Source: Patescibacteria group bacterium (lineage in GTDB: Bacteria; Patescibacteriota; Minisyncoccia; Phycocordibacterales; Phycocordibacteraceae). Taken from it: 64,000 nucleotides of DNA. Positions within the stretch are counted from its first letter, which is position 1, and each line of letters starts with the position of its first letter. The notes beneath the pieces are model-generated. The model had not been told where the DNA came from. It made no database searches and saw only the letters and a program-made list of their open reading frames with translations. The translations under genes and the position numbers were made by a program. The DNA lies in the NCBI GenBank assembly GCA_018970425.1, contig JAGWWK010000002.1:72068-136067 (forward strand), written 5' to 3'. This document shows, one piece after another, positions 2,762-59,221 of this stretch.

Positions 2762-4771
<2,010 letters not shown>

Positions 4772-8363: not shown

Positions 8364-8834
8364 CTATGGCCTAAGGTTATAGCAGAACCGACCTGTCGTG
8401 GAACCGGAGCAGGGACCGGTGTCCGCGGTGTTTACACAGGCCGTAGCGCCAGTGAGCGCAACGTCAACATCGGAGTTGAGTGCTGCATTCGTACCTTCTT
8501 CGAGGTTAGCGCAGAGTGCATATGACTGACCGCCTGAGGCAAGGTCGTACCCATACGGGACCGCAGTACCAACCGGATCGTTAGGGACCGTTGCGATGTA
8601 CGCTGTGGTGAGCGCGCTCAACGTCGCAGGGTATGCGTTATTCGCATCATAGAAGAGCTGAAGCGCAAGCTGGAGCTGTTTAAGGTCAGCAACACGGCGC
8701 GCATCGCGACTCTTCACGCGTGCTGTATTGAGCGACGCGAGAACGACCGCGGAGAGGATACCAATAATGGCAATCACGACGAGGAGCTCAATGAGCGTAA
8801 AGCCTCGAGGCGATTTTCGTAGTTGTATGAACAT
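8364..8834 (-). CDS. type IV pilin paralog
   Basis: MFIQLRKSPRGFTLIELLVVIAIIGILSAVVLASLN..., near-identical N-terminus to the 7822..8301 pilin. ORF extends to 8957, but the ATG at 8834 gives a normal leader length. Confidence 0.8.
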   Translation of the reverse strand: MFIQLRKSPRGFTLIELLVVIAIIGILSAVVLASLNTARVKSRDARRVADLKQLQLALQLFYDANNAYPATLSALTTAYIATVPNDPVGTAVPYGYDLASGGQSYALCANLEEGTNAALNSDVDVALTGATACVNTADTGPCSGSTTGRFCYNLRP

Positions 8835-8922
8835 TTCGTTACTAATAGGTAAATAATGACCATCGCGGTCAGGCTCATTGTAGCCCCTCAGTGCGTGCCT
8901 GGCGAGTCTCGTGTGGAAAAAG

Positions 8923-10131
8923 CTAGATAGCCGAAGAGATGTTGTAGATCGGCACAAGGACCGATGTGAGAAGAATGCCGACGCCGAGGCCGAGTGTCAC
9001 AATCATAAACGGCTCAATGAGGTCAACCAGCGTGTCGACCGAGTTTGAAACTTCGCGGTTATAGAATTTTGCGAGCGTTTTAAGTATTGCGCCCATCTCG
9101 CCGGTTTCCTCACCCACGCGTATCATGGCCGTCATGATGCCCGGCACCTCGGGGTGCGTCTCGAGCGTAGCGGATATAGCGCCGCCCCCTTTGACGTTAG
9201 CCGCGACATCTGCAAGGATCGGCTCATACACTGCACTTCCAACAACCGAGCTTGTAATTTCAACCGCCTGCACCACTGCGATACCGGACGTGAGCATCGT
9301 CGACATATTGTCGGCAATGCGCGCGAGGTAGAGCTTTCTCACCAGGTCGCCGATGTAAGGGATAGAGAGCACGAATCGGTCAAACGCAAGGCGACCCATT
9401 TGCGTGCGCGAGTATCTGAAGAGAAACACTCCTCCCACTACGAGCGCAATCAAAAGGAGTACGCCGTAGTTCACAAAAAAGTTGCTGAGCCCGATGACCG
9501 CGCGCGTGTAAATAGGAATCTCCTGTCCCGAGTCAATCAATATCTGCGAGATGTTCGGAATTACAAACGTCATCATGAGGATCATGACGACGATAAACGT
9601 TGAAATTACAAACGCTGGGTAAATGAGTGCGTTCCGCGCTTTCGATGAAATCTCGTATGAGCGGTCTAGGTAATCTGCAAGATAAACGAACGTCTCATCA
9701 AGTTTTCCTGCCTCTTCTCCTGCGCGAACCATATTCACGTAAAAGCGCGAAAAAATCTTAGGATGCTTTTCAAGTGACTTCGATATCGACAACCCGCCCT
9801 GAATATCATCTGCGATGGCAGTGAGCGTAGTGCGCAAAAGAGGCTTATCCGCCTCGGTAGCAAGTAGTCTGAAAATGCGAAGCGCGGATACTTGCGCCTC
9901 AAAGAGCGTAGATATTTCGCGCGATAAAAGTACGATGTCCCTTGTTGCAACCGTATCAAAAATTTTGAGAGATACAGAAAATCCTGCCCCCTCTTCAGTC
10001 GCCTCCTCTACCGCGGTAACGGAAAGGCCGCGCCGCTGGAGTGACGTGATAGCGACATCTCGAGAAACGGCATCAATAGTGCCGCTCTGCCGCGCGCCAT
10101 TTTGGTCGATTGCTTCGTAGGAAAAGAGCAT
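8923..10131 (-). CDS. pilC: type IV pilus inner-membrane platform protein (GspF/PilC family)
   Basis: 402 aa. Two T2SS-F-like repeats and three TM segments. Sits between pilT and the pilin genes. Confidence 0.85.
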   Translation of the reverse strand: MLFSYEAIDQNGARQSGTIDAVSRDVAITSLQRRGLSVTAVEEATEEGAGFSVSLKIFDTVATRDIVLLSREISTLFEAQVSALRIFRLLATEADKPLLRTTLTAIADDIQGGLSISKSLEKHPKIFSRFYVNMVRAGEEAGKLDETFVYLADYLDRSYEISSKARNALIYPAFVISTFIVVMILMMTFVIPNISQILIDSGQEIPIYTRAVIGLSNFFVNYGVLLLIALVVGGVFLFRYSRTQMGRLAFDRFVLSIPYIGDLVRKLYLARIADNMSTMLTSGIAVVQAVEITSSVVGSAVYEPILADVAANVKGGGAISATLETHPEVPGIMTAMIRVGEETGEMGAILKTLAKFYNREVSNSVDTLVDLIEPFMIVTLGLGVGILLTSVLVPIYNISSAI

Positions 10132-10134
10132 AGA

Positions 10135-11202
10135 TTAAATAAGTCGCATAAAGGTCTTTGGATTCAGCGATCGCGCAATAGCCACCTCAGGCGTCACCTC
10201 ACCCCGGCGTACGAGCTCTGCGAGTGTTCTATTCATATCTATCATGCCGAGCTCTGAACCGGTCTCAATGACCGCATTAATCTCGTGCGTCCGACGCTCG
10301 CGAATGAGGTTCGACACCGCTTCGGTATTTATTAGTAACTCGTACGCAGGTACCAGACCTCCTGAAATTCGCGGCACCAGCCGCTGCGAGAAGATGCCTG
10401 CCAACGAGGATGCGAGCTGCAAGCGGATCTGATCTTGCTGCGTTGACGGAAACGTATCAATAATGCGGTCAATAGTCTGCGCAGCATTATTTGTGTGGAG
10501 CGTGGAGAGCACCAAGTGTCCAGTTTCTGCGGCTGTAACCGCAGCCGACATGGTCTCGGGACCGCGCATTTCACCCACCATGACCACATCGACGTCCTGC
10601 CTGAATGCCGAGAGGAGCGCTGACTGGAATGTGTGCGTGTCAATCTTCACCTCGCGCTGGTTGATCACGGAGTTCTTGCTCTCAAATGTATACTCGATCG
10701 GATCTTCAATCGTGAGGATGTGCTCGGTACGATCCTGATTGATTTTCTCAATCATTGCAGCAAGCGTTGTCGACTTGCCTTGTCCGACTGGCCCCACGAC
10801 AAGAAAGAAACCTTGCTGGAGCTGCGTAAATGTCTCAAGAATGGGGGGCAAATTAAGTTCAGCAAACGTCTTGATCTGTTTCGGAATGAGCCGTAGAGCT
10901 ATTGAAACACTACCCTGCTGTATAAATGCATTCCCTCGGAAGCGTGCTGCAGTTTTGTATGAGTATGAAAAGTCGAGCTCCTGCGCATCGTCAAACTCCG
11001 CGAGTTTGACTGCACCAACAAGCGCGGCAAGAATGCCTCGCGTATCTTCCGGTGTATACTCTGGTTTTTTAACGAGCGGTATCAAGTTGCCTGAGACGCG
11101 AAGTATGGGCCTTGAGTGGGCAGAAAAATGGAGGTCAGACGCGCCTTCAGCAATCACCGTCTGCAGAAGTTCATCGAGTTCTTTTTGATAGTCGAGTGCC
11201 AT
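10135..11202 (-). CDS. pilT: twitching-motility retraction ATPase
   Basis: 355 aa. Walker A GPVGQGKSTT, Asp box, His box. PilT-like length, lacking the GspE N-domain. Confidence 0.85.
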   Translation of the reverse strand: MALDYQKELDELLQTVIAEGASDLHFSAHSRPILRVSGNLIPLVKKPEYTPEDTRGILAALVGAVKLAEFDDAQELDFSYSYKTAARFRGNAFIQQGSVSIALRLIPKQIKTFAELNLPPILETFTQLQQGFFLVVGPVGQGKSTTLAAMIEKINQDRTEHILTIEDPIEYTFESKNSVINQREVKIDTHTFQSALLSAFRQDVDVVMVGEMRGPETMSAAVTAAETGHLVLSTLHTNNAAQTIDRIIDTFPSTQQDQIRLQLASSLAGIFSQRLVPRISGGLVPAYELLINTEAVSNLIRERRTHEINAVIETGSELGMIDMNRTLAELVRRGEVTPEVAIARSLNPKTFMRLI

Positions 11203-48486: not shown

Positions 48487-48873
48487 CTATAGATGCTTCC
48501 TCTGCCAAGCCAAAATGCAGAGCGACCCTACAACAAAAAGCATCGACATAAGGAATGCGACCGAACTCTTGTCAAAGCCGTAGAGGAAATCAGTGCGGTA
48601 CTCGGGCGCTAAAAATACTGCAAGCACTGACATAGGGATCCATACTAGTGCAAAGCTGCTCCATGTATTAAATATTTTTTTTGACGTACGAGAAACAAGG
48701 AGAAAAGTCAAAAAGAATATAATGAAAGGCTGAAGTGGGAGGCCGAAAAAATAGTTCCAGCTCATGCACCAACGCCAACTATCTCCGCACAAGTAGAAAG
48801 GTTGAAGCGCTCCAGAAATCAAAGCTAAAGCAGCTCCAATACCGAGAAACGTCATCCAAGTTTTTGTGTTCAT
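48487..48873 (-). CDS. small 4-TM membrane protein, AT-rich, paired with the lipase-like gene
   Basis: 128 aa, Trp/Phe-rich TM protein. 4-nt overlap (ATGA) with the upstream 1049-aa gene. Markedly lower GC than flanking ribosomal genes by eye. Confidence 0.45.
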   Translation of the reverse strand: MNTKTWMTFLGIGAALALISGALQPFYLCGDSWRWCMSWNYFFGLPLQPFIIFFLTFLLVSRTSKKIFNTWSSFALVWIPMSVLAVFLAPEYRTDFLYGFDKSSVAFLMSMLFVVGSLCILAWQRKHL

Positions 48874-51800
48874 TGCTGAAATTGTACTGAACCAATAAGC
48901 ATACTTACGATAGCTGCACCGTATCGCAAGATGTCATCTATATAATCCCATGCAAACTGGAACGCGATACTCCAGAGGGCGCGTGCAACGATAGTCATAT
49001 TTTGCACCTCACCCTCATCTAAAAGTGCTGGTGCTTGCTCAATACTCTCCCTCACACCTTTTTCAAATTGCCGTACCTGCTCTACTGTCTGAGCGACGTC
49101 AGGTTGAACGGCGGCAATCGCCGCACCGAGCACTCGACCCTGTGGCGCTGGCAGTGACTCTATTGATGGTACGGACTGCTGTACCTCAGAATCTGCCAGT
49201 ACCTCGGAAGGCTGGGTATTAGGTAGAACAGGATCTGGCAGTTTACGTACAACAGTCACAGACTCTTGGCCCGTAACCTGGCTCGATACAATCACTCCGC
49301 CGCCCAAGGACGCTACCGCAGGACTCACTGGTGACAAGGTCGGCGCGGGCGCAGGGGGTGGCGGAAGTGTGACCGAACTATTCAGGTTCGGTGAGAGTGT
49401 GTGCTCATCGACTCCATCCCCGTCTTGATCTATATGGAGCTTACTCAACCCGCTGTACCCCCCTGCCGTTGCTAGAGCGACGCGTGTCTCAGGCGATACG
49501 GGCAAATCTTCAAACCGGGTAAAGGCCTGCACAGCGTCACCCTCTCGCTCCTCTACAACGAGTGTAAAAGTTCCACTGCCCGTACCAGTGAGATGTGCAG
49601 ATACAGGACTACTGGCATCAACAAACGCATAGGACGAACTTCCGAGCGTGATGAACCGTGAGTTTGGTATGCCTTCCGACAACTCTCCTGTTGTCGTGGA
49701 TACGCCAGTCATACGACCCTCGCTGTCGTAGAGCGCGAGTGTGAGCGGCGAGTGAAGCGATATAAGGAGCCGGCGCTGCCCGGCGGCCGGCTGAGTGTCG
49801 CTGAGGTGTGAATACGCAGACACAGGCGCCCGTGTCTTGGTAATGGTATCTGCGATAAAATTAAGTACTGGATCGGCTTCTAAAAGGCGAGAGTGCTCAA
49901 AATTTCTAAACCCTCCAAGAGTAGCAATCAAGTTCGACCGATTATGCACGTCGAGATCGAACCAAAACCTCTCACCACCTGACATCCATAGCGCACTGGG
50001 TGCGACTACTGTACCGTCACCATTCACACTAAATCGCGCGTTCGGCTCTACGCCACTCGGTCCGGATGAGTATGTTATTCCTTTCAGCGTCTCAACACCC
50101 CACCCGCCTATCTGCACGACCGCAATTTCTGCGGGATGTACCCATCCGTCAATCGATTCATGGAGCGTTCGGGCTGACGCAAGGAGGTTCTGACTGAGCG
50201 CAATCGGCTGATCAATATCGCCCTCTGGTAGTACCTTACCGAACGCACTGGTAAGCACTTCAGCGAGCTGCGACTGAGAAGAAATAGACGCACCAAACTG
50301 ACTGCGCCACGCTGGTACACTCGAGTCGAACGTAACGACCGAGCTGTCTATGGATTGAAAATAGGCCTCCGTGGGCAATAGGTGGTAAAACATCGGCGAT
50401 GTAGACGCAAATGCGCGTGCTACCTGCTTAGAAAGCACAAGTCCATAGAGGAGCTCTTGGCGAAATCCGTGCATGCCAGCAGCAATCGCCATTGGTGTAC
50501 CCACCTGAGGAGCACCAATCAGTATGATGGAGTCAATGTACCGAGCTGCATCGTCACCAAGCGTTTCCGCAAGGCGTTTAGCTATGATCCCGCCATAGGA
50601 GTGCGCAATCACGGTGACCTTCCCCGTACGAGACGTTTCCGCTAAATGGCGGAGCTCCTGCACAATATACGGCGTTGACGTAGGAGCGAGGAGACCTGTG
50701 AAGTAAATACGACCATCGGTTTCATACCCGCGTGTAAGTAACGAGTCGGGTGAGAGTCGCCAGTCGTACGCAATAGGTTCCCAGTCGGCAATTTTTCCAT
50801 CAGCCTTCAGCGCATCCATGCGGGTTATGAATGACTTGTAGATATTGAGTCCGGTAGGTGTTTCATCAAGAATGTCGTGAGTCTTCACATAGATGTCATC
50901 TCGCACACCTTCACCGAAGTCATTCAAAAAGAGGTCGCGCACATCATCGTTGTGCATCGGCTCCCACAAGCGATCCGTACCTCCGGCGTAGTCAGGCCGA
51001 TACAGTCTCGAACCCTCAATGCCCGGCAAAAACAGCACATTAGAGTTGCAATTTTCAACACACACAGTATCCGCTATGCTCGGTCGAAACGCCGAGGATC
51101 GCATGGCTGAGGCAGTGCCATCGATTCGTGCAGTAAATCGAATGTAGACGGACTCAGGAATTGTTCCGGAGCACTGCTCGCAGGCAATTTCGCTATCGCT
51201 TTCATCATTCCACAAAACCCACGTGGTCGGCGATGTCATGCGCAGCGAGAAGTAGCGCACGTACGGCGGCACCGCAAGCGTCAATTCAGTGGTCTGACGC
51301 GCCTCAATGTCACACGTAGTAGGATACGTTTCTAGTATCACAAAAAAAGGCCTGCCATCGTTGTTCGGCGTCCTGAGGCGCATATGGAGGTGCAACAACC
51401 CTCCTACGTACTCAGCACGCTCATGCGAGTCGAATAAATAACCTGATGACAAAGCGGCTACGCAGTCTGGATTACGCAGCACAGTATCAGGAAACTCGGG
51501 GGGCACTGCTCCCTCACGTATTGCCACAGTGCGAGTGTGAGCGTAACTTGCACCACCGTCTATAAAAGGCCGAATGAACGCGCGTGTGTACGCAGGATAC
51601 GGAGGTACCGTAACCTCGCTCACCTTAACGCCCAAAGTGTCATCCCATACTTCAATTTGAGTAGCTGACGCGAATCGAATACTCCACTCAGTTGAACCTG
51701 GCGCAAGTTCGGTCGTAAAACGCTTTGAGCCAATCTCTAGGCACTCATCTGAGATGAAATACACGTCTACTGAAAAAGAACGGCCATCTTGAAGCTCGGG

Positions 51801-52019
51801 CTGCAGAGACAGTCCCATCCTAAGGAGACCCGATTCATAATAAACCTCCTCCCGGTCAGAGAAAAAATACCCGGTCGCTAAAATACTCGACTGCCCGCAT
51901 GGATCAGAAAATAGCGCGAGAACTGAACGCGGTACTCCATAAAAAAAAATGGCGAGCATACAGCTCGCCACCACTACAGTGAGAAACATACCTGCCCAAA
52001 TACGGGCATGCCAGCGCAT
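48870..52019 (-). CDS. large secreted/membrane-anchored alpha/beta-hydrolase (lipase/LCAT/PGAP1-like) protein
   Basis: 1049 aa. N-terminal TM/signal segment. Nucleophile elbow VIAHSYGGIIAKR with upstream LFLPGIEGS (oxyanion region). Long Thr/Ser/Pro-rich region (PPPPAPAPT). C-terminal hydrophobic helix. AT-richer third positions than core genes. Confidence 0.6.
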   Translation of the reverse strand: MRWHARIWAGMFLTVVVASCMLAIFFYGVPRSVLALFSDPCGQSSILATGYFFSDREEVYYESGLLRMGLSLQPELQDGRSFSVDVYFISDECLEIGSKRFTTELAPGSTEWSIRFASATQIEVWDDTLGVKVSEVTVPPYPAYTRAFIRPFIDGGASYAHTRTVAIREGAVPPEFPDTVLRNPDCVAALSSGYLFDSHERAEYVGGLLHLHMRLRTPNNDGRPFFVILETYPTTCDIEARQTTELTLAVPPYVRYFSLRMTSPTTWVLWNDESDSEIACEQCSGTIPESVYIRFTARIDGTASAMRSSAFRPSIADTVCVENCNSNVLFLPGIEGSRLYRPDYAGGTDRLWEPMHNDDVRDLFLNDFGEGVRDDIYVKTHDILDETPTGLNIYKSFITRMDALKADGKIADWEPIAYDWRLSPDSLLTRGYETDGRIYFTGLLAPTSTPYIVQELRHLAETSRTGKVTVIAHSYGGIIAKRLAETLGDDAARYIDSIILIGAPQVGTPMAIAAGMHGFRQELLYGLVLSKQVARAFASTSPMFYHLLPTEAYFQSIDSSVVTFDSSVPAWRSQFGASISSQSQLAEVLTSAFGKVLPEGDIDQPIALSQNLLASARTLHESIDGWVHPAEIAVVQIGGWGVETLKGITYSSGPSGVEPNARFSVNGDGTVVAPSALWMSGGERFWFDLDVHNRSNLIATLGGFRNFEHSRLLEADPVLNFIADTITKTRAPVSAYSHLSDTQPAAGQRRLLISLHSPLTLALYDSEGRMTGVSTTTGELSEGIPNSRFITLGSSSYAFVDASSPVSAHLTGTGSGTFTLVVEEREGDAVQAFTRFEDLPVSPETRVALATAGGYSGLSKLHIDQDGDGVDEHTLSPNLNSSVTLPPPPAPAPTLSPVSPAVASLGGGVIVSSQVTGQESVTVVRKLPDPVLPNTQPSEVLADSEVQQSVPSIESLPAPQGRVLGAAIAAVQPDVAQTVEQVRQFEKGVRESIEQAPALLDEGEVQNMTIVARALWSIAFQFAWDYIDDILRYGAAIVSMLIGSVQFQQ

Positions 52020-52032
52020 GCACTCATACTAG

Positions 52033-52059
52033 CGCGCCGCGCTAGTACAGCGCGGCGCG
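52033..52059. promoter_or_regulatory. GC-rich 10-bp-stem hairpin between rplE and the inserted gene
   Basis: CGCGCCGCGC-TAGTACA-GCGCGGCGCG. Overlaps a 17-bp palindrome CTAGCGCGCCGCGCTAG. Not followed by a U-run on the transcribed strand. Confidence 0.35.
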
Positions 52060-52075
52060 TATGTGCATAAGTAAC

Positions 52076-55181: not shown

Positions 55182-55526
55182 TTACTTCTTCTTATCTGCG
55201 GCCGGAGCCTTTGCTGCCTGCGCTGCTGCTATTTCAGCTTCCTTCTTCTTCTGCTCAAGCTCCTTCTGCATCTTGCCTCCGTGGCGGAGGAACTTCTTTG
55301 TCGGAGCAAACTCGCCGAGACGATGCCCGACCATTTCTTCACTTACGAGCACATCTTCAAACGCCTTCCCAGTGTGCACGGCGAAGGTGAAGCCGACCAT
55401 TTCAGGCGAGATCATCGAGGCGCGCGCCCAGGTCTTTATCGGACCGGTCTTTTGCGGAGTCTTGCCCTCAATTTTCCTGAGGAGCTTATGAAATACGTAG
55501 GGACCCTTTTTGAGTGATCGTGACAT
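55182..55526 (-). CDS. rpsS: 30S ribosomal protein S19 with Lys/Ala-rich C-terminal extension
   Basis: [11 protein letters not shown]... core, followed by ...[35 protein letters not shown] at 55526 chosen. Confidence 0.85.
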
Positions 55527-55576
55527 AGGCGATACTTCGCTACGGTAGCATGCAGGCGCTGTACCCGCAACCCCTC

Positions 55577-55600
55577 TGTGCAATACCTAGGTATTGCACA
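55577..55600. repeat. 24-bp perfect palindrome TGTGCAATACCTAGGTATTGCACA
   Basis: Read directly. Centred on CTAG, in the divergent region between rpsS and the Y1 transposase-like gene, 21 nt upstream of the latter's ATG. Confidence 0.5.
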
Positions 55601-55620
55601 AAATGTGGTATGGTAGAGGT

Positions 55621-56283
55621 ATGTCCGTTAAACGGTCCGTCGCACTCGGTGAGTACTACCACGTCTACAACCGTGGTGCCCACAAGCAAGGTATCTTTCG
55701 GGAGCAAGCCGACTGGGCCCGATTCCTATTCGGACTCATCTACTTTCAGTCCCCTACCCCGTTCAAAAACATTTCCCGACGCGCGCGGACATTTGATCCG
55801 CAGTCTGGCTACGAGGTGCGCGAGTCAGAGTTTAGACATGTGTATGATGCTCGCTCTGTGGAGCTTGTCGCATTTTGCCTTATGGAAAACCACTTCCACC
55901 TCATCGTTCGTGAAATTCGCGAGGGTGGCGTAAGTCGATACCTACAGCGCGTGCAAGAGTCGTACGCAAAGTATTTCAATGAGAAGTACCAATGCCCTGG
56001 CCATGTCTTTGAGGGGCCGTTTAAGGCAAAGCTTGTGCCCGATAATGAATACCTCATGCACCTTTCAGCCTACATTCACCGCAATCCTCGAGATATACCT
56101 AAGTGGAAGCGTTCCTACGACGCTTACCCGTGGTCGTCGTGCACGGATTATGTACGCGAGAACCGTTGGGGAGGTCTTTTGGCGCAAGAAATAATTCTTG
56201 ACCAGTTTGCCGGTACCAAGGAGTCAAACTATGCTGACTTTGTTAGATCAAGCCCCGCAAAAGGTTTTGACTTTTCTGTATAA
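55621..56283 (+). CDS. IS200/IS605-family Y1 (HUH) transposase-like protein / REP-associated tyrosine transposase-like
   Basis: HuH motif ENHFHLIV, catalytic Tyr region SAYIHRNP, N-terminal YHVYNRG. ~220 aa. Antisense to the surrounding ribosomal operon. Confidence 0.65.
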   Translation: MSVKRSVALGEYYHVYNRGAHKQGIFREQADWARFLFGLIYFQSPTPFKNISRRARTFDPQSGYEVRESEFRHVYDARSVELVAFCLMENHFHLIVREIREGGVSRYLQRVQESYAKYFNEKYQCPGHVFEGPFKAKLVPDNEYLMHLSAYIHRNPRDIPKWKRSYDAYPWSSCTDYVRENRWGGLLAQEIILDQFAGTKESNYADFVRSSPAKGFDFSV

Positions 56284-56310
56284 AAAAACCCCGCCGAAGC
56301 GGGGTGTTGC
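56282..56310. terminator. bidirectional hairpin terminator (CCCCGC-CGAA-GCGGGG)
   Basis: GC hairpin flanked by an A7 run on the + strand (U-run for the minus-strand rplB transcript) and TGTTGCTT on the other side. Confidence 0.6.
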
Positions 56311-57168
56311 TTATGCTGACTTTCGCTTCTTGCCAACCTTGCGGCGAGAAAGAATAAACGGATTTGAATACTTCTTTGGAGAACGAGTCTTCTGACCCTT
56401 GCCTGCAGGCTTGCCCCAGAGAGTCTTTGCGCGGCGGAGACCACGACCCTGACGACCCTCGCCTCCTCCGTGCGGGTGATCAACCGGATTCATAGCTGTA
56501 CCACGAACTGTCGGGCGGATACCCATCGCGCGCGATCGTCCTGCCTTACCAATCGTAACCAAGTGCCACTCGGGGTTTGAGACCTCGCCGACAGATGCCC
56601 ATGCCGAGTCAACTACTTTGCGCACCTCAGAAGATGGGAGCTTGACCTGCGCATACCCAGCGTCATGCGCAATAACTTCAGCGTAGTTACCAGCAGAGCG
56701 TCCGATTTTCGCGCCACCACCCGCGTGAATCTCAATGTTGTATATAAACGTACCGACCGGAATATTTTTGAGCGGCAGTCGGTTGCCTGGCGTCACCGGC
56801 GCAGTCGCCGAGGCAAGAACAGTGTCACCTACCTTCAAGGACTGCGGCGCGAGCATGTAGCGGCGCTCACCATCGCGATACACCACGCGCGCAATGAATC
56901 CTGTGCGGTGCGGGTCGTACTCAATGTGCTCGATGCGAGCCGGTATGTCCTTCTTGTCGAACATAAAGTCGACCATGCGGAACTTGCGCTTGTTACCGCC
57001 ACCCTGGTGACGAGTGGTGATGCGACCGAACGCGTTTCTGCCCGCGCGTTCCTTACCGCCGCGTACGAGACGCTTGTGCGGGGTGTCGGTCGTCAGATAC
57101 TCGCGGTACTTGACCACGGAGTAATTGCGCGTGCCTGCAGTTCGGGGACGATATATTTTAATGCTCAT
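56311..57168 (-). CDS. rplB: 50S ribosomal protein L2
   Basis: 285 aa, classic L2 including GGG..HPHGGGEG. Confidence 0.9.
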   Translation of the reverse strand: MSIKIYRPRTAGTRNYSVVKYREYLTTDTPHKRLVRGGKERAGRNAFGRITTRHQGGGNKRKFRMVDFMFDKKDIPARIEHIEYDPHRTGFIARVVYRDGERRYMLAPQSLKVGDTVLASATAPVTPGNRLPLKNIPVGTFIYNIEIHAGGGAKIGRSAGNYAEVIAHDAGYAQVKLPSSEVRKVVDSAWASVGEVSNPEWHLVTIGKAGRSRAMGIRPTVRGTAMNPVDHPHGGGEGRQGRGLRRAKTLWGKPAGKGQKTRSPKKYSNPFILSRRKVGKKRKSA

Positions 57169-58846: not shown

Positions 58847-59221
58847 TTACATCATCTTTACGTCGACAGACACGCCAGACGGGAGTGAGAGGTTGGTAAG
58901 CGCGTCAACGATCTTTGGATTCGGATTGAGAATATCAATTACACGCTTGTGCGTGCGGATCTCGAACTGCTCCTGCGCGTTCTTAAAGATGAACGACGAG
59001 CGGAGCACTGAGAACTTCTTAAAATCAGTCGGTAGTGGCACTGGGCCAACTACCTGCGCGTCAAATCTGAGCGCTGTATCGATGATCTGCTTTACGGACT
59101 GGTCGAGCACTGAATGGTCGTAGCCACGCACGCGAAGCCTGAGCTTCGCGTGCGTGTCCGCTGCGACCTTAGTACCTTTCTTTGCGCGAGGCGCCTTCGT
59201 TGTCTTTGGTTCGGTTGCCAT
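58847..59221 (-). CDS. rpsJ: 30S ribosomal protein S10 (N-terminally extended)
   Basis: S10 core (LRLRVRGYDHSVLD...) after a ~25-aa Lys/Ala-rich extension. Confidence 0.85.
   Translation of the reverse strand: MATEPKTTKAPRAKKGTKVAADTHAKLRLRVRGYDHSVLDQSVKQIIDTALRFDAQVVGPVPLPTDFKKFSVLRSSFIFKNAQEQFEIRTHKRVIDILNPNPKIVDALTNLSLPSGVSVDVKMM

Follow-up and report, generated by a model that had tools for sequence, protein, structure and literature searches.

A RAYT-like HUH/Y1 gene and its palindrome between rplB and rpsS in Patescibacteria: a probable domesticated nuclease unit

The S10 operon of a Patescibacteria group bacterium lies on the minus strand of the 64,000-nt stretch analyzed here (assembly GCA_018970425.1, contig JAGWWK010000002.1, positions 72,068 to 136,067; hereafter the window). 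The spacer between its rplB and rpsS genes, a junction normally spanned by a few bases, is 784 nt long and holds a single plus-strand open reading frame (ORF), a Y1/HUH gene, preceded by a perfect palindrome that we call H1. Our analysis indicates, with a probability that we put at about 0.72, that this spacer carries a domesticated gene for a REP-associated-type tyrosine (HUH/Y1) single-strand DNA nuclease together with the hairpin that such enzymes recognize, both being part of a Patescibacteria-wide family. The genes and the palindrome are as follows.

55577-55600, no strand: H1, the cognate hairpin TGTGCAATACCTAGGTATTGCACA, 24 nt, perfectly palindromic, arms of 12 bp, foot TG...CA
55621-56283, plus strand: Y1/HUH gene, 220 amino acids plus stop, RAYT-like, class 2 of TnpA_Y1, with HUH histidines H91 and H93 and tyrosine Y151 (YIHRNP)
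55182-55526, minus strand: rpsS (S19), an ORF that opens the downstream part of the apparently split S10 operon, ATG at 55524-55526
56311-57168, minus strand: rplB (L2), from its ORF translation, which closes the upstream part of the apparently split S10 operon

The tblastn synteny table and the promoter line-up showed that rpsS is the immediate neighbor of the Y1/hairpin unit throughout the clade of relatives in which the gene adjoins rpsS, and Pfam Ribosomal_L2 was found at the position matching rplB in relatives. Homology favors ATG 55621 (MSVKR...) as the start of the Y1 gene, whose stop codon is at 56281-56283; other in-frame starts are available at 55594 and 55603. The product matched Pfam Y1_Tnp (PF01797) at 34.7 bits against a gathering score of 23. 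In an alignment of 73 homologs, the HUH motif (H91-F-H93) and Y151-IHRNP were invariant, and the invariant residues included, among others, Y13, H14, R18, N90, H91, H93, R110, Y151, H153, N155, P156, W162, Y169, P170, S172, S173, N181, R182, W183, and G184. An earlier interpretation of the letters alone (the sequence-only reading) had proposed a HUH/Y1 gene of about 220 codons antisense between rplB and rpsS. The ORF, the Pfam match, and the invariant motifs bear out this proposal, and the HUH and Tyr motifs on which it hinged are present throughout the alignment.

The AlphaFold (AF2) model of the Y1 protein (pLDDT 89.7, pTM 0.88) gave 4er8_A as its top Foldseek match (E = 2.9e-5, TM 0.65 on target), followed by the ISDra2 and IS608 TnpA structures. 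The nearest solved relative in a family-profile search was E. coli TnpA_REP (4ER8), and the alignment spanned the HuH, FQ/WQ, YIHRNP/YIYINP, and PWSS/PFST motifs. The family profile was needed, since a search of PDB sequences with the lone Y1 sequence returned chance matches only (ryanodine receptor, E ~0.5). Pfam detected no helix-turn-helix (HTH) domain in the protein. Judged from the model and the alignment, the protein has the Y1-transposase fold with intact HUH and Tyr motifs. In the classification of TnpA_Y1 proteins, class 2 (RAYT-like) is marked by Y---NP and class 1 (IS200) by Y---Q (Quentin et al. 2018, PMC6006769); thus, the Y---NP motif assigns the protein to class 2 and not to the IS200 class. 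The sequence-only reading had left the choice between an IS200/IS605-type and a REP-associated protein, and the 4ER8 match and the Y---NP motif decide for the latter.

H1 ends 20 nt upstream of the Y1 ATG and is symmetric through its center, with no loop. Its fold as single-stranded DNA has an energy of -8.9 kcal/mol (z = -5.1). H1 was unique in the 64-kb window even with three mismatches allowed (0 matches in 100 shuffles), and the rest of the window gave isolated, unpaired arm-like matches only to the palindrome or its arm. The palindrome had been predicted just upstream of the gene, and it proved to be both perfect and window-unique. H1 is the only cognate element of the window Y1 gene. In L086, the closest relative of the window (L with a number labels the loci or metagenome contigs of relatives), all 24 nt are 100% identical, though pS is 0.69.

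Corresponding palindromes of 24-45 nt stand before the Y1 start across the rpsS-adjacent clade, at a distance of 6-55 nt (mostly 10-30), and are perfect in nearly every member; those of L008 and L011 are imperfect. When loci outside the clade are counted as well, the distance range is 4-55 nt. Their sequences vary by lineage while the arms remain complementary. Among 19 clade palindromes, 228/228 stem cells were Watson-Crick with zero G-T, and 9 of 12 pairs had changed on both sides. The covariation score was 0.751, versus 0.205 in shuffles (0/500 as high) and ~0.1 with slid partners. The T-G...C-A foot was invariant in these 19 palindromes, and TG...CA was present in all 58 upstream hairpins compared, in which complementarity dropped to ~40% beyond 11-12 bp. 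The complete absence of wobble pairs points to a constraint on both DNA strands rather than on an RNA.

The window unit belongs to a Patescibacteria-wide "hairpin plus nuclease" family. A homology search retrieved 794 proteins at E <= 0.001, and relatives turned up in at least 581 species-level genomes when one genome was scanned per species; the best 80 of these at least 581 were inspected as genome loci. Among the 120 homologs listed, every given source name was a Patescibacteria-group organism or a generic "putative transposase" or RayT label, and most represented 1-3 contigs (maximum nine). Collections of phages and plasmids yielded weak matches only, at 25-38% identity. Annotation pipelines already call such proteins "transposase" or "RayT", and we found no description of the Patescibacteria family, its hairpin architecture, or its S10 position in the searchable literature, which does not prove absence from the literature; the family is apparently undescribed. 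Some genomes carry two Y1 genes (L195, at 2013-2606 and 8588-9244; L095; and L041/L071, from the same metagenome-assembled genome), one of the described family and the other a remote paralog (~31-34% identity) a few kilobases away, or a second member on another contig.

In this family, the hairpin has an 11-12 bp stem with a TG...CA foot, and its copies bracket the Y1 gene. Outside the clade, H1 ends ~5-30 nt before the ATG. Across the family, this upstream copy overlaps the predicted promoter of the gene. A further copy, H3, starts 0-15 nt after the Y1 stop codon and is identical to H1 in most loci. In at least 22 loci, an in-frame copy, H2, lies within the ORF at +170 to +187 nt (codons ~58-66), the least conserved region of the protein, where it is translated as F-V-[KQ]-H-[SR]-V-[FL]-[ND]-I. 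The copies are uniform within a genome and differ between genomes, which indicates concerted evolution, and their 3-nt loop is frequently flipped between copies. The rpsS-adjacent clade is without H2, and H3 is kept only in L005, L027, L022, and the loci in which Y1 and rpsS are co-directional (below). In the window, H2 and H3 are lost and H1 is retained as a perfect palindrome.

Hairpins of this family also occur away from Y1 genes. A metagenome scan with a degenerate version of the common hairpin variants, on a sample selected for hairpin matches, returned at least 120 stretches. Among the 150 exact matches listed, 28 touched a Y1 gene, 8 lay >300 nt from one, and 114 were on stretches without Y1; the matches away from Y1 thus made up 122 of the 150, and many of them were inside long ORFs. 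In-frame hairpins were found in hosts confirmed by Pfam: LigA (between HhH and BRCT), MurB (in the inter-domain linker), LysRS, ArgRS, and MnmA. Insert-free orthologs exist, such as the window LigA (2765-4735, minus strand), and other orthologs carry a different hairpin variant at the same site. Near Y1 loci, an unbiased count gave ~5 extra hairpins per 243 kb for loci outside the clade and 1 per 141 kb for clade loci. That one clade copy follows closely on rplE in L010; 63 kb of the window contain 0 copies besides H1. The hairpin system is therefore REP-like but low-copy, and in the window lineage it is nearly reduced to H1.

Several minor observations concern these dispersed hairpins. A glycosyltransferase is also among the genes with an in-frame family hairpin, and the contigs with in-gene hairpins are L129, L120, L121, L142, L159, L108, L136, L128, L174, and L132. 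The in-gene 23-nt hairpins add 6-9 residues (V[KQ]H[SR]V[FL][ND] or CSTPGVEQ) in linkers or loops. In L101 (1588-3718), a locus without a Y1 gene, six identical hairpins lie within 2.1 kb; their spacings alternate between 635 and 400 nt, and there is a 38-nt doublet besides. The array looks like a tandemly duplicated hairpin-bounded segment. REPIN-like hairpin doublets 27-31 nt apart were seen in L093, L114, and L192. The window itself contains a palindrome with 9-bp arms at 10990-11010, GTCAAACTC-cgc-GAGTTTGAC, in frame in the ORF 10135-11202 (minus strand) and read as VKLAEFD. It resembles the in-frame family read-out (V-K-x-x-x-F-D) and the GTCAAAC-type stems of relatives; it may be a decayed hairpin or a chance occurrence, as ~1.5 palindromes of such size are expected per 64 kb.

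The position in the S10 operon is shared by diverged relatives. Homologs at 53-85% identity (P0015, P0004, P0086, and P0002) occupy the same antisense rplB-rpsS position, and the genomes that share this position span 49-85% protein identity. The Y1 gene was directly upstream of rpsS in 21 distinct loci among the best 80, in 24 when L004, L005, and L086, which were fetched separately, are added, and in 25 with the window. About 20 of these, the window counted, are antisense to rpsS, and four are co-directional (L014-16 and L021), with a ~900-1050-amino-acid ORF between rplB and Y1; this ORF is threonine/serine-rich and repetitive in L014, where it may encode a surface protein. The other loci in the best 80, all below ~50% identity, sit elsewhere, with neighbors that include rpsA, pth, lepA, and GAPDH and, in L025, with fusA and tuf on either side; small groups of them have synteny in common. 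In a neighbor-joining tree without support values, every rpsS-adjacent member fell in a single clade, within which the co-directional state arises twice. Distances between Y1 proteins correlated with those of rpsS plus rplV (Mantel r = 0.68; 0/5000 permutations as high). Between the window and L086, the Y1 dN/dS was 0.056, compared with 0.011-0.035 for five ribosomal protein genes, a ratio that is approximate, given nearly saturated synonymous sites (pS 0.69). No clade member has a truncated ORF or lacks any of the invariant residues.

The single clade, the co-divergence with ribosomal genes, and a dN/dS of 0.06 indicate one capture followed by vertical inheritance. As read from these sequence comparisons, the unit entered the rplB-rpsS junction once, in the ancestor of a Paceibacteria-type clade, and has since been inherited vertically under purifying selection. 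No compositional island was found at the insert in GC content or skew, which fits an old acquisition. None of the metagenome loci checked for an intact rplB-rpsS outgroup junction carries these genes. The sequence-only reading had favored a domesticated single-copy gene over an active insertion sequence (IS), and the shared position, the single clade, the co-divergence, and the dN/dS all agree with it; the synteny that it had proposed checking is kept across diverged clade members. Its suggested search for copies was carried out in the window, where the palindrome is unique and there is one Y1 gene, so that "single-copy" holds within 64 kb. PADLOC and PHROGs gave no matches, and thus no defense-system or phage reading is supported; Rfam gave no family at gathering score in the 51-61 kb region of the window, with SorX, SorY, and RsmY sub-threshold and taken as chance. 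No tnpB gene was present among the neighbors of the Y1 gene in the window and the relatives examined. The rplB side of the junction is a hotspot: relatives carry 0.3-0.7 kb of extra DNA between Y1 and rplB (L086, 5160-5460; L005, 5682-6371; also L017, L019, and L030); the extra DNA of L086 includes a small minus-strand ORF with its own terminator, which may encode a membrane peptide.

The palindrome is placed among transcription signals, which in the window are as follows.

56282-56305, minus strand: terminator-like hairpin of rplB, from the terminator scan, with a 7-bp stem (six G-C pairs), a CGAA/TTCG loop, and a T7 run
55606-55614, plus strand: predicted extended -10 box of Y1, TGgTATGGT, 6 nt before the ATG, by analogy with relatives
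55542-55570, minus strand: predicted rpsS promoter, -35 TTGCGG at 55565-55570, 17-nt spacer, -10 TACCGT at 55542-55547, by positional homology

The hairpin ACCCCGC-CGAA-GCGGGGT (56288-56305) begins 5 nt past the rplB stop codon and folds at -9.0 kcal/mol (z = -3.6). Its T-run, which overlaps the Y1 stop codon, is on the minus strand, so that the hairpin has the orientation of an intrinsic terminator of rplB. L086 has a homologous hairpin after its Y1 stop, and analogous ones are present in L007, L010, and L026. The scan, the T-run, and the fold all support the terminator after rplB that had been proposed from the sequence alone. We rejected this hairpin as a second end of the element, since it is unrelated in sequence to H1. 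The claim that two hairpins flank the element accordingly holds for the upstream palindrome, whereas the downstream hairpin is an ordinary terminator.

The promoter assignments in the window are made by analogy with relatives. L006 (TGaTATACT) and L086 (TGgTATGCT) have an extended -10 box at the same place as the predicted Y1 box, and by this analogy the Y1 mRNA would be leaderless or nearly so. In L001, the consensus scan called exactly two promoters. One, TTGGCA-17-CATAAT on the plus strand, has the left palindrome arm as its -35 box and a -10 box ending 6 nt before the Y1 ATG; the other, TTGACG-17-TACTAT on the minus strand, ends 7 nt before the rpsS ATG. The corresponding distance in the window, from the rpsS -10 box to the ATG, is 15 nt. 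A predicted rpsS-directed promoter stands beside the hairpin in all clade members (19 read-outs, lined up by eye), with a -35 box (GG)TTGAC(G/A), a 17-18 nt spacer, and a -10 box TAGGAT/TAGAGT/TAGTAT/TACTAT, and the scan called it in L001, L022, and L014. In the co-directional loci, the hairpin beside rpsS is H3, which still abuts TTGACA-(17/18)-TAGTAT, as inversion of the gene between H1 and H3 predicts. A promoter of its own for rpsS, beside the hairpin across the clade, would mean that the S10 operon is split. The rpsS leader is very short in close relatives and 60-100 nt long, with a hairpin and a U-run, in distant ones. These distant members (L005, L017, L019, L026, L030, L018, L020, L022, and L027) share a conserved, AAGCTCGAAAGGGCTCG-like leader stem, and their leader hairpin with U-run resembles an attenuator.

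On this basis, we propose a mechanism for the unit. The Y1 protein would bind the hairpin as extruded in DNA that is single-stranded or negatively supercoiled; Y151 would cut and rejoin single-stranded DNA beside the hairpin, with the HUH histidines holding a metal ion, and this activity may have spread and homogenized the hairpins. Binding and cleavage are extrapolated from biochemical work on the TnpA proteins of IS608 and ISDra2 and on TnpA_REP of E. coli (PMC3479197, PMC6006769). As the anatomy of the locus suggests, a protein bound at H1 would mask the Y1 promoter at its -35 box and spacer, and the gene would thereby repress its own transcription; divergent transcription may favor extrusion of the palindrome. 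The insertion would have split the S10 operon into a rpsJ-rplB unit ending at the terminator and a rpsS-rplV-rpsC... unit starting from a new promoter; this promoter and that of Y1 would point away from each other, on either side of the hairpin.

Several observations weigh against this interpretation. The protein scored 35.9 bits with NCBIfam NF047646 (RAYT equivalog), against a cut-off of 80, and the canonical RAYT foot GT[AG]G is not present in the hairpin. A dimer that recognizes double-stranded DNA would also account for the perfect symmetry, central bases included. The rpsS promoter hexamers of the window are weak, matching at 3/6 each, and the consensus scan of the window called no promoter. 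L001, L004, L008, and L011 have no terminator between rplB and Y1, the stop codons of which overlap, so that uncoupling of the operon by termination is not clade-universal; the earlier suggestion that rpsS is uncoupled is backed by the clade-conserved predicted promoter beside the palindrome. Moreover, the nuclease of the window lineage may have almost no substrate besides H1, and the proposed mechanism does not account for a benefit that would keep Y1 under selection where hairpins are nearly absent.

Some of these points would suit a palindrome that serves as a double-stranded operator or promoter element for the divergent Y1 and rpsS promoters, the protein being kept as a DNA-binding regulator whose cleavage activity is irrelevant in this lineage. 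The symmetric, loopless palindrome overlaps the -35 box and spacer of Y1 and lies 6 nt from the -35 box of rpsS, and almost no other hairpin copies exist in the clade. We consider this unlikely, because the HUH and Tyr residues are still invariant in the clade and because the same hairpin family is found at the 3' end, inside the ORF, and dispersed elsewhere, where an operator role is impossible. Decay offers a still poorer account. If Y1 were a functionless relic, kept because its deletion would harm rpsS expression, the loss of H2 and H3 and the weak promoter hexamers of the window would be understandable; a dN/dS of 0.056, within a factor of 2-5 of ribosomal proteins, and a full-length ORF with all invariant residues in every clade member make this extremely improbable.

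The remaining alternatives concern mobility. An ordinary, currently mobile IS200/IS605-type IS that landed in the S10 operon would explain the Pfam Y1_Tnp match, the hairpins that flank the gene in most family members like IS200 ends, the two orientations at the junction, and the few contigs with two Y1 genes. It is largely refuted, and we regard it as very improbable: the position is common to genomes at 49-85% identity that form one clade and co-diverge with their neighbors, the window has one copy in 64 kb with neither a second end nor tnpB, the motif is Y---NP and not Y---Q (PMC6006769), dN/dS is 0.056, and close relatives are essentially absent from plasmids and phages. The shared position might instead reflect site specificity, if the element had inserted repeatedly with the rplB-rpsS junction or the promoter region of rpsS as its target. 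The gene is found in either orientation (L014-16 and L021 versus the rest), the rplB side varies greatly, its extra DNA ranging from 0 to 3.3 kb, and family members sit in other translation operons (fusA-tuf in L025, or next to rpsA or pth). Repeated targeting is nevertheless improbable, since the members form a single clade, their Y1 distances follow those of the flanking ribosomal proteins, and the co-directional cases are nested in the clade with a hairpin still against the rpsS promoter, as an H1-H3 inversion predicts. We favor a domesticated nuclease gene with its hairpin.

Among known systems, the unit resembles the E. coli TnpA_REP/RAYT "REPtron" (PDB 4ER8; Nunvar 2010, PMC2817692; Messing 2012, PMC3479197; Bertels 2017, PMC5581495) in its HUH/Y1 fold, Y---NP motif, and "SS" tail motif. 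Like the E. coli RAYT, it is single-copy (within the 64 kb), housekeeping-like, and vertically inherited; at the level of the family, cognate hairpins flank the gene and occur elsewhere in the genome, whereas the window keeps the upstream copy alone. Unlike TnpA_REP, to which it has ~14% identity, the Patescibacteria protein is ~55 amino acids longer and falls below the NCBIfam cut-off. In the Patescibacteria hairpin, the foot (TG...CA) is symmetric and the stem perfect, in contrast to the 5' GT[AG]G foot and bulged stem of E. coli REP; this hairpin occurs about once per 50 kb or less, also in frame inside genes, whereas E. coli has hundreds of REPs.

Within class 2, the family shares with subclass 2.4 (Bertels group 4; PMC6006769) a REP inside tnpA_REP with the frame intact, a symmetric "double foot", and low copy number. 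The in-gene hairpin of Patescibacteria lies before HuH, at codons ~58-66, a different position from that in subclass 2.4 (PMC6006769). Subclass 2.4 has WQ, YIxNNP, and a GT[AG]G...C[TC]AC foot and is hosted by Cyanobacteria and Bacteroidetes, whereas the Patescibacteria family has FQ, YIHRNP, and TG...CA. With subclass 2.1 (Bertels group 1; "TIRYT") it shares NH[YF]H, FQ, Y[IV]H.NP, the SS tail, and a length of ~220-240 amino acids. Subclass 2.1 is reported to be free of REP-like hairpins and to carry an HTH-type C-terminal domain, whereas the Patescibacteria family has cognate hairpins as a hallmark and no HTH by Pfam. By these descriptions, the family appears to fit neither subclass 2.1 nor 2.4. 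The IS200/IS605 TnpA proteins (IS608 and ISDra2) have the same fold, subterminal single-stranded DNA hairpins, and a similarly small unit (0.75 kb here); their Y---Q motif, ~150-amino-acid length, multiple copies, horizontal transfer, and frequent tnpB are not shared. The element thus appears to work like a RAYT/REPtron with a class-2 signature, although it lacks the GT[AG]G foot and the NCBIfam score of a canonical RAYT and differs from IS200 on every test. Rickettsia palindromic elements (RPE) are short palindromic repeats of 100-150 bp that lie in frame in essential genes of a reduced genome and for which no dedicated nuclease gene is known. The Patescibacteria inserts are 18-27 nt and Y1-associated; in-frame insertion in essential genes is the trait shared by both.

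The RAYT/REP pair is the textbook domesticated transposase whose host benefit is still unknown, and it has been studied almost only in Proteobacteria. Our analysis reveals a large, compact, and highly regular RAYT-like version in Patescibacteria, whose reduced genomes are expected to retain hardly any gene that does not matter. Because hairpin and promoter are physically merged, autoregulation and extrusion are directly testable. In one clade, an interruption of rplB-rpsS, which is among the most conserved bacterial junctions, was first tolerated and then fixed, along with a predicted new promoter. Annotation and protein-family alignments of Patescibacteria are also affected by the in-frame hairpins in essential genes. 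More speculatively, and in our view rather doubtful, there may be a phylum-wide system in which one ~23-nt palindrome acts as promoter/autoregulatory site, 3' terminator, in-frame ORF segment, and mobile unit colonizing the linkers of essential genes (LigA, MurB, aminoacyl-tRNA synthetases), and which in the window clade was co-opted as a permanent node of the ribosomal super-operon. If so, the hairpin between back-to-back promoters could couple ribosomal-protein transcription to supercoiling, single-strandedness, or the nuclease.

Two further features of the ribosomal gene cluster were observed. A hairpin with a 14-bp perfect stem, CACGCACGCGAAGC-CTGA-GCTTCGCGTGCGTG, lies at 59125-59156 of the window in the 5' part of the rpsJ (S10) frame, spanning codons ~28-39 as counted in the longest ORF. 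L004 (8500-8527) and L007 (7539-7568) have it too, and it may be a regulatory structure where the S10 operon begins. The spc part is also interrupted (window 48870-52075; L004 1-1379; L010 1-480), with a 1049-amino-acid protein, LCAT/lipase-like by Pfam in L004, following rplE in place of rpsN/rpsH. GC-rich palindromes occupy 52027-52059 in the spacer after rplE, and L010 has a solo Y1 hairpin in the matching spacer.

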